DNA from: an uncultured Clostridium sp.
GTDB lineage: Bacteria > Bacillota > Clostridia > TANB77 > CAG-508
Direction of reading: 5' to 3'
Length of the DNA stretch: 64,000 nt
Assembly: GCA_902492105.1 (NCBI GenBank)
Contig: CABUKD010000003.1
Span: forward strand, 1,890 to 65,889
Shown here: piece after piece, positions 58,271-58,462 of the stretch
Layout: each line of letters starts with the position of its first letter
Numbering within the stretch: position 1 is the first letter of the stretch
Program-made: the position numbers and the translations under genes
Notes under the pieces: generated by a model
The model's database searches: none
What the model saw: the letters and a program-made list of their open reading frames with translations, nothing else
Told to the model about the DNA's origin: nothing

Positions 58271-58462
58271 ATGGAAAAGAAATTAGATGCGAGAGTTCAA
58301 GAATTAGTTGATGAATATATCATCAATACCCAAGATTGTCAACATGCAAAAGATAATTATGGTGATAACTATAATGACAGCTATTATCATGACAGATATG
58401 ATGATAGATACGATGACAGATATGATGATTATAGCGACGAAAAATACCATGATGCTAGATAG
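58271..58462 (+). CDS. 63-aa candidate RiPP precursor peptide with eight Y-x-D motifs in the C-terminal core
   Basis: MEKKLDARVQELVDEYIINTQDCQHAKD-NYGD-NYND-SYYHD-RYDD-RYDD-RYDD-YSD-EKYHD-AR. AGGGGG RBS. It lies 8 nt upstream of a radical SAM/SPASM gene. Confidence 0.7.
   Translation: MEKKLDARVQELVDEYIINTQDCQHAKDNYGDNYNDSYYHDRYDDRYDDRYDDYSDEKYHDAR

Follow-up and report, generated by a model that had tools for sequence, protein, structure and literature searches.

A Tyr-x-Asp repeat peptide encoded beside a radical SAM/SPASM enzyme in an uncultured Clostridium sp., a predicted multi-site substrate for three-residue cyclophane formation

Precursor gene and expression signals

The window analyzed here is a 64,000-nucleotide stretch of contig CABUKD010000003.1 (assembly GCA_902492105.1) from an uncultured Clostridium sp., with a G+C content of 28.7%. 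It harbors a small open reading frame (ORF) encoding 63 amino acids (58271-58462, + strand; translation MEKKLDARVQELVDEYIINTQDCQHAKDNYGDNYNDSYYHDRYDDRYDDRYDDYSDEKYHDAR), directly followed by the gene of a radical S-adenosylmethionine (SAM)/SPASM peptide maturase of 384 amino acids (58471..59625, + strand). The 63-residue ORF is predicted to encode a genuine precursor-type peptide, namely the precursor of a peptide that is made by ribosomes and modified after translation (RiPP). Its leader (residues 1-28, 58271..58354, + strand) bears the sequence R-V-x-E-L-V, a motif conserved among the homologues, and its core (residues 29-63 plus the stop codon, 58355..58462, + strand) follows the pattern (x-Y-x-D)n with eight Tyr-x-Asp motifs.

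A Shine-Dalgarno sequence AGGGGGT, read directly from the letters, is located 5 nt upstream of the ATG (58259..58265, + strand), and a GGAGG-type site is found at equal distance from the start in every homologous precursor. The promoter-like element TTGACA-17-TATACT (58219..58247, + strand) is the top-scoring site of the region (11/12), but with 43 such sites observed where 35.7 are expected, the AT-rich sequence shows no enrichment for them and the evidence for a promoter is weak. Two overlapping ORFs (58304-58450, - strand, and 58308-58505, + strand) are by-products of low-complexity DNA. The gap between precursor and maturase genes is only 8 nt and the maturase gene overlaps the next gene by 20 nt, which indicates a single operon.

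The Tyr-x-Asp array

All eight Tyr-x-Asp motifs lie within residues 30-61, with the tyrosines at positions 30, 34, 39, 43, 47, 51, 54 and 59 as originally assigned. The four-residue periodicity ascribed to them in the initial annotation describes most of the array but is not strict, the spacings being 4, 5, 4, 4, 4, 3 and 5. Shuffling the 35 core residues 100,000 times yields a mean of 2.75 motifs (P = 5e-5 for eight or more), and the actual core has eight cases of Asp at +2 from Tyr, compared to three, one and zero at +1, +3 and +4, respectively. The array is therefore not explained by composition alone. In all six frames of the window no other 35-residue stretch contains more than two Y-x-D motifs.

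At the DNA level the core is an imperfect tandem repeat (period 12, 3.7 copies, 84% matches according to Tandem Repeats Finder). The codons of the three RYDD units, AGA TAT GAT GAT, AGA TAC GAT GAC and AGA TAT GAT GAT, are those given earlier and differ synonymously. This had been taken to suggest selection on the peptide rather than recent slippage, an interpretation that is supported by these differences and by the excess of synonymous over non-synonymous differences between most orthologues described below. The motif is maintained by selection, and the repeat units of the window are old and diverged.

Conservation among homologous loci

Loci of maturase relatives were drawn from genome and metagenome collections, supplemented by an exact look-up. 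The initial annotation had coupled the peptide to the adjoining radical SAM gene and had made its case dependent on a Y-x-D-rich ORF at homologous loci. Such a small ORF is present directly beside the maturase gene in 16/16 loci with a maturase identity of at least 37% and enough flanking sequence. Two more distant loci (maturase identity 28%) also possess a Y-x-D-rich ORF, and at a third (30%) an aromatic-x-Asp-rich ORF of 108 amino acids lies beside the enzyme. The precursor is mostly located upstream of the maturase, and downstream of it in one subclade. Six further copies were recovered by direct search with the peptide.

Motif statistics were compiled from 20 independent precursors adjoining maturase homologues that are 28-71% identical to the window enzyme. 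In this profile Asp is found at +2 from 144/159 core tyrosines. Over 164 motifs the aromatic position is occupied by Tyr (144), His (16) or Trp (4), while the middle position (D, H, N, G or S) and the spacer (R, S, D, Y, N, H and others) are free to vary. The commonest motif spacing is four residues (73/144 intervals), and each precursor contains between 4 and 15 motifs. The best-conserved part is a core-opening block N/S-Y-N-D-S-Y-Y-H-D. Judged from this profile, selection acts on Tyr at i and Asp at i+2.

The proportion of synonymous differences (pS) exceeds that of non-synonymous differences (pN) in all six pairs compared. The most informative pairs give pS/pN values of 0.63/0.20 (L084/L165) and 0.54/0.27 (L003/L169), and the window and L002 differ only marginally in this respect (0.30/0.25).

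The leaders diverge far more than the cores between orthologues, and the conserved leader element is the short sequence R-[VIL]-x-E-[LFI]-[LIV]. The leader had been described as amphipathic with a single cysteine. This cysteine (C23) is indeed present, but only 4/14 homologous leaders contain one, and a functional leader Cys was consequently dropped. Amphipathicity was likewise abandoned as a significant feature, as the hydrophobic moment (0.52) is no higher than that of shuffled leaders (0.48; fraction at or above the observed value 0.33).

A different state of the repeat is seen in locus L083 (2087-2173), where a 30-nt repeat with 2.9 copies and 100% DNA identity gives rise to three IWDDNYDDEP units, the aromatic residue alternating between Trp and Tyr. 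This is a recent duplication, and repeat number does change in this way.

The radical SAM/SPASM maturase

The maturase reaches only the generic Radical_SAM domain of Pfam (1.9e-19). About 75 relatives with 37-66% identity were found, nearly all of them from metagenome assemblies. Across 71 sequences the cysteines C14, C18 and C21 as well as C251, C257, C273, C315, C318, C324 and C328 are invariant, and C347 is nearly so (at least 90% conserved). Both the CX3CX2C motif and a complete set of SPASM cysteines are thus intact, and the architecture expected of a triceptide synthase is present. Among solved structures the nearest is that of anSME (PDB code 4k36), followed by the Tyr-cyclophane synthase ChlB (third match) and then CteB. 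The alignment with anSME runs end to end and includes both auxiliary clusters. Because it begins at residue 7, the maturase lacks an N-terminal RiPP recognition element (RRE) domain.

The best NCBIfam match is DynA with 206.5 bits (cut-off 450), followed by anSME with 181.6 bits (cut-off 349). Further matches are CbpB (151 bits, cut-off 375), PapB (150, 340), YhhB (146.4, 445), DarW (138.7, 650), AmcB (134.6, 425), DarE (123.6, 650), GrrM/OscB (122.6, 310), FxsB (114.9, 370) and XyeB (79.5, 450). A curated model of YxdB, the synthase discussed below, is not among the NCBIfam matches listed. Four other members of the clade also remain below all curated cut-offs. On these scores the maturase belongs to the neighborhood of anSME, the daropeptide and dynobactin enzymes and the cyclophane synthases.

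The residue following the third auxiliary-cluster cysteine is an invariant Asn274 in the clade. It aligns with Asp277 of anSME, the proposed catalytic base of that enzyme. The same position is Gly or Gln in distant enzymes accompanied by aromatic-x-Asp peptides (L087, L091/92, L012), and Asp in anSME and in two neighbors with Trp-motif peptides, L089 (WDGEWTEWED) and L094 (WGDSWTKF). The residue of the enzyme and the motif of its substrate thus covary, a weak but consistent signal. Two other residues were considered for recognition of the substrate Asp and rejected: Arg275 occurs in neighbors without Asp motifs, too, and Arg188 is missing from distant Y-x-D enzymes.

The Trp-motif ORFs (L089 1998-2150 and L094 1492-1602) are small, have a Shine-Dalgarno sequence and lie directly after maturase relatives of 28-29% identity; substrates resembling those of daropeptides or dynobactin are their likely products. 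Since these more distant relatives adjoin Trp-motif peptides, the wider clade seems to target aromatic motifs. At L012 an ORF of 114 amino acids (318-662) with five His-Thr-Asp motifs is located upstream of a maturase 30% identical to that of the window and is possibly a His-x-Asp counterpart of the Y-x-D family.

Comparison with characterized systems

The closest functional parallel is YxdA/YxdB, in which a radical SAM enzyme acts on Tyr-x-Asp. According to the review PMC11002830, which cites Sugiyama et al. (JACS 2022), YxdB (WP_226048651.1) is a triceptide synthase that forms a bond between C3 of Tyr and Cβ of Asp on its YxD motif, the same cyclophane as is proposed here. YxdB was compared by description only and would at best be a distant relative of the window enzyme, because none of the 3 named proteins among the 120 best homologues is plausibly YxdB and no WP_ accession was present in the 10 NCBI-sourced homologue clusters checked. 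Correspondingly, no Y-x-D peptide was found at RefSeq (NZ_) loci among 80 genome matches. In plasmid records the maturase is matched best by a gene of a Cetobacterium plasmid, which is 28.7% identical and has no Y-x-D peptide.

Other triceptide synthases, namely ChlB (acting on YDR), YhhB (Tyr/His to Arg, with the hydroxylase YhhC), HaaB, HtkB and MicB (YSK/HAS/FTK), are SPASM radical SAM enzymes as well and link Tyr-C3 or His-C2 to Cβ on aromatic-X-X motifs, of which there are often several per precursor; for ChlB, YhhB and MicB the links are Tyr-C3 to Cβ on Y-x-R/K motifs. At the third motif position they usually act on a basic or small residue; in the window family this residue is Asp throughout. 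Tailoring in the triceptide clusters is carried out by O2-dependent Fe/2-oxoglutarate hydroxylases or an ADP-ribosyltransferase, neither of which is present here; instead, the accessories are a TIM barrel, kinase-fold and P-loop proteins and a ClpP/SDH-type protease. The window system thus has the enzyme architecture and the motif-bearing neighboring peptide of a triceptide system, but the enzyme does not attain the score of a curated named model.

DynA and DarE/DarW resemble the window enzyme in their RRE-less or SPASM architecture and in crosslinking an aromatic residue to a β-carbon. The DynA score is, however, under half of the cut-off, and these enzymes come from Gram-negative producers and act on single Trp-containing cores, whereas Trp occupies just 4/164 motif positions in the window family. 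anSME differs in its score, in the Asp277 position (Asn274 here) and in its partner, which is a sulfatase and not a small Y-x-D peptide. The ryptide system RrrA/RrrB is alike in that a radical SAM enzyme bonds Tyr, at its ortho position, to a side-chain carbon. It belongs to a different enzyme subfamily and forms a single 16-membered ring between Arg-Cγ and Tyr at the C-terminus of a 41-mer, while Arg is not conserved in the precursors of the window family.

By predicted function, and by analogy with YxdB, the system is a YxD-type triceptide system, i.e. an unannotated branch of a published kind. The central idea will not surprise a specialist, because Tyr-Asp cyclophane chemistry on YxD has already been published. 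Literature searches for a gut Tyr/Asp cyclophane family returned nothing relevant.

Proposed chemistry and alternative explanations

The initial annotation had offered two kinds of chemistry, of which the three-residue cyclophane-forming radical SAM reaction fits best, given the linkage reported for YxdB. It is very probable that the adjoining enzyme modifies the Y-x-D units of the peptide. We consider it reasonably probable, too, that the array is a multi-site substrate of a three-residue cyclophane synthase joining Tyr-C3 to Asp-Cβ; this particular bond is proposed by analogy with YxdB and the other three-residue cyclophane synthases, and the same reaction is indicated by the type of enzyme, by the strictness with which Tyr(i) is paired with Asp(i+2) and, in neighboring clades, by substrates with aromatic motifs. 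In this mechanism the 5'-deoxyadenosyl radical generated by the 58471-59625 enzyme would abstract a hydrogen from the β-carbon of the third residue, Asp, in each Tyr-x-Asp unit, and the resulting Asp-Cβ radical would add to C3, the ortho carbon, of the Tyr located two positions upstream. An auxiliary Fe-S cluster would then accept the electron and the ring would re-aromatize, leading to a three-residue cyclophane with a mass change of -2 Da per unit. Up to eight rings per peptide, mostly separated by one variable residue, would yield a rigid and strongly acidic poly-cyclophane. The partners that are not universal (TIM barrel, kinase-fold and HprK-like proteins, and the ClpP/SDH-type protease in the sister subclade) probably tailor, process or export the product.

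Several observations weigh against this proposal. The maturase does not attain the cut-off of any curated model of a cyclophane synthase (YhhB, AmcB, GrrM/OscB, FxsB and XyeB), and the top match DynA forms a C-N link as well. Database names are attached to just 3 of the best 120 homologues, two from uncultured metagenome-assembled genomes and one from Desulfobotulus. Some window motifs lack a spacer (Y51-D-D/Y54-S-D) or follow a second Tyr (Y38-Y39-H-D), and modification of all eight units may therefore be sterically limited. Because uncharacterized partner enzymes are frequent, the final product may also differ considerably from a plain triceptide.

The enzyme could form a different crosslink on Y-x-D, either an ether (through Tyr-O, or as an aromatic C-O-Cβ bond like that of DarE and the daropeptides) or a bond to a carbon other than Asp-Cβ. 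DynA is the best curated match and DarW and DarE score as well, the enzyme group forms C-C, C-O and C-N links, and a common origin is claimed for triceptide synthases and the maturases of daropeptides. Against this, every characterized Tyr three-residue motif yields a Tyr-C3 to Cβ link, and the sole reported Y-x-D enzyme forms, according to the review PMC11002830, a C-C link, which makes a different crosslink unlikely. A change of Asp or Tyr without ring formation, such as an anSME-like oxidation of the β-carbon (of the formylglycine or aminomalonate type) or an epimerization, is suggested by anSME, which is nearest among solved structures and ranks second among the NCBIfam matches. A cyclophane synthase has also reportedly given formylglycine and aminomalonate in vitro. 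Yet the position aligned to Asp277 of anSME is an invariant Asn here, and the strict i/i+2 pairing argues that Tyr and Asp take part in one reaction, so that we regard ring-free chemistry as quite improbable. The precursor might also be a multi-core peptide from which each crosslinked Y-x-D is cut out by the ClpP/SDH-type protease or the U32-like protein to give a small, cofactor-like Tyr-Asp molecule; pyrroloquinoline quinone (PQQ) is derived from Glu and Tyr. The units repeat at short period, and one subclade has a conserved protease, whose ORF shares the reading frame of the precursor at three loci. The spacers, however, are single non-conserved residues without a recognizable cleavage site, loci of the window type have no recognizable protease, and no PqqB/C/D-like gene was found in the Pfam and NCBIfam scans; excision of this kind is very improbable.

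The other chemistry named in the initial annotation, a ryptide-like Arg-Tyr crosslink, drew on the adjacent Arg-Tyr pairs, of which the window peptide contains four. It is not supported by the comparison: Arg precedes the aromatic residue in only 38/164 motifs and is absent from whole orthologues (L004, L163, L168). In addition, RrrB closes a single ring, no StrB, SuiB or RrrB model is among the 25 best NCBIfam matches, and WgkB, from the same streptococcal RaS-RiPP network, ranks 24th with 76.6 bits against a cut-off of 650. We give a crosslink of this type hardly any credence. Finally, the ORF could be a chance product of low-complexity, AT-rich DNA, neither translated nor modified, as might be suspected from the 12-nt imperfect repeat and the low G+C content. 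The comparative data refute this reading, as the peptide is kept across maturases only 37-71% identical, mostly with a synonymous excess, Shine-Dalgarno sites are conserved as well, and shuffled sequences contain far fewer motifs; the probability of a chance ORF is next to nil.

If the cyclophane proposal is true, the family would constitute an almost wholly metagenomic branch of the triceptides that is overlooked by current annotation models, and its precursors, with 6-15 sites per peptide, would contain some of the densest runs of cyclophane sites known to us. It would offer a natural test bed for the action of one radical SAM enzyme on many adjacent, near-identical sites.

Partner genes and genomic neighborhood

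According to a presence/absence matrix of the loci, only the precursor-maturase pair is universal. The gene overlapping the maturase encodes a Cys-cluster TIM-barrel protein of 311 amino acids (59606..60541, + strand), which is present at 11/15 Y-x-D loci with adequate flanks. Like the precursor, it has no Pfam or NCBIfam family; even at E<=1, Pfam provides no match, Peptidase_U32 included, for five members of its family (window, L164, L161, P0206 and P0224). The AlphaFold2 model has a (β/α)8 fold with a mean predicted local distance difference test score (pLDDT) of 92.3. In a Foldseek search of the PDB the best fold match is the U32 peptidase Mk0906 (5d88, E 2.2e-6, TM-scores 0.49/0.60), and generic TIM barrels follow from 2.7e-5. 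The TM-scores are modest with other TIM barrels close behind, and a profile of the family has no sequence match to PDB chains at E<=10. Possibly in common with the U32 family, the protein has a conserved Cys cluster after a late β-strand, located in a loop of lower confidence: C183, C187 and C197 are invariant and C190 is usual, which suggests a metal or Fe-S site.

The TIM-barrel family comprises 413 representative clusters, all of them without a database name in a word-based search. In an exhaustive profile search the best 150 matches, all strong family members, provide no bridge to a known family, and there is no match in plasmid records. Literature searches for U32 partners of radical SAM RiPPs found nothing relevant. 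Many family members (P0201, P0203, P0207, P0210, P0236 and others) are 500-600 amino acids long, and their additional C-terminal segment of about 280 residues matches neither Pfam nor the other proteins of the cluster.

A gene with a kinase fold (APH/RIO-like; Pfam APH 6e-5 in the C-terminal half) lies on the opposite strand (60503..61322, - strand), with a terminator-like hairpin at 60488-60509. It is split by one frameshift near 60907-60957, whereas its orthologues in L165, L167 and L168 are intact and are encoded on the opposite strand. The frameshift could denote a pseudogene or a long-read assembly indel, the latter because the isolate name of a sister assembly contains 'metaflye', which we read as long-read. 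The kinase-fold gene is followed by the gene of an HprK-related/FomB-like P-loop protein of 341 amino acids (61382..62407, + strand), for which the NCBIfam matches HprK_rel_B (7.6e-10) and FomB (1.4e-9) are both far under cut-off. Homologues are found in L161, L163, L084, L165 and L168. A bidirectional terminator-like hairpin (62389..62430) closes the cluster.

Members of the U32 family include the Fe-S dependent, O2-independent hydroxylases UbiU/UbiV, TrhP and RlhA. By analogy, the TIM-barrel protein could be a U32-like Fe-S enzyme of this kind, replacing the O2-dependent hydroxylases of the aerobic triceptide clusters, and the kinase-fold proteins could add phosphate. That these orphan partners together perform an anaerobic tailoring of the Tyr-Asp-stapled array, e.g. 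by O2-independent hydroxylation and phosphorylation, and thereby define a new subclass is a tentative suggestion which we think possible, if somewhat doubtful. The cluster is an entry to two orphan families that may carry out such tailoring, represented by the TIM barrel with its Cys cluster and by the partner with the kinase fold. If the partners do tailor the product, strictly anaerobic uncultured gut Bacillota would possess a subclass of poly-anionic, poly-cyclic peptides, encoded alongside a TraG-like/MurJ-like module.

The first gene of that module encodes the C-terminal ~500 amino acids of a TraG/VirD4-like coupling protein (62445..63974, - strand) and is a conserved neighbor, adjoining the cluster in 9 loci (including L161, L162, L163, L165, L167, L168 and L084) although the maturases are only 42-52% identical. 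The window protein is 49-65% identical to its counterparts in L163, L165 and L161. Pfam T4SS-DNA_transf/TraG-D_C matches are found in the proteins of L163, L162, L167 and L168, with none on record for L161 and L165. In several loci a MurJ/MATE-like transporter gene comes after the TraG-like gene. The cluster may ride on this module or its product be exported by it. A Replic_Relax-like gene is present in the window, L001, L002 and L084, with a distant homologue (26% identity) in L162.

In the sister subclade the gene order is TIM barrel, kinase, maturase and ClpP/SDH-type protease. In three of its loci protease and Y-x-D precursor share one reading frame that no stop codon interrupts (L164 6055-7119, L081 2563-3810 and L083 1199-2242). 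The internal ATG keeps its own Shine-Dalgarno sequence in all three, so that a separate peptide can still be made. Protease and precursor are separate genes in L003 and L169. The precursor of L081 has two Y-x-D blocks with 15 motifs altogether.

Some individual loci show further features. The cluster of L166 (precursor, maturase and TIM barrel) is flanked by two phage-type integrases and a transposase on the one hand and genes for TIR-domain (ThsB/CAP12-like) proteins on the other (1-4300 and 8800-11050), a setting which is a mobile or defence island. In L004, from Acutalibacteraceae, a secreted subtilisin-like protease of 620 amino acids, with DSG, HGTH and GTSMAAP motifs recognized by eye, is encoded divergently upstream of the precursor (560-2422, - strand) and is a candidate leader peptidase. 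The sister locus L001, about 96% identical to the window, carries a 1.7-kb insertion (8941-10615) between the kinase-fold and HprK-like genes; the flanking alignments overlap by 14 bp, corresponding to window positions 61398-61411, and this may be an insertion sequence with its target duplication. Upstream of the precursor in the window itself, two ORFs of 171 and 72 amino acids (56085-56600 and 56605-56823, + strand) look by eye like halves of one S4-domain pseudouridine synthase, which may have been split by a frameshift, a stop codon or an assembly error.

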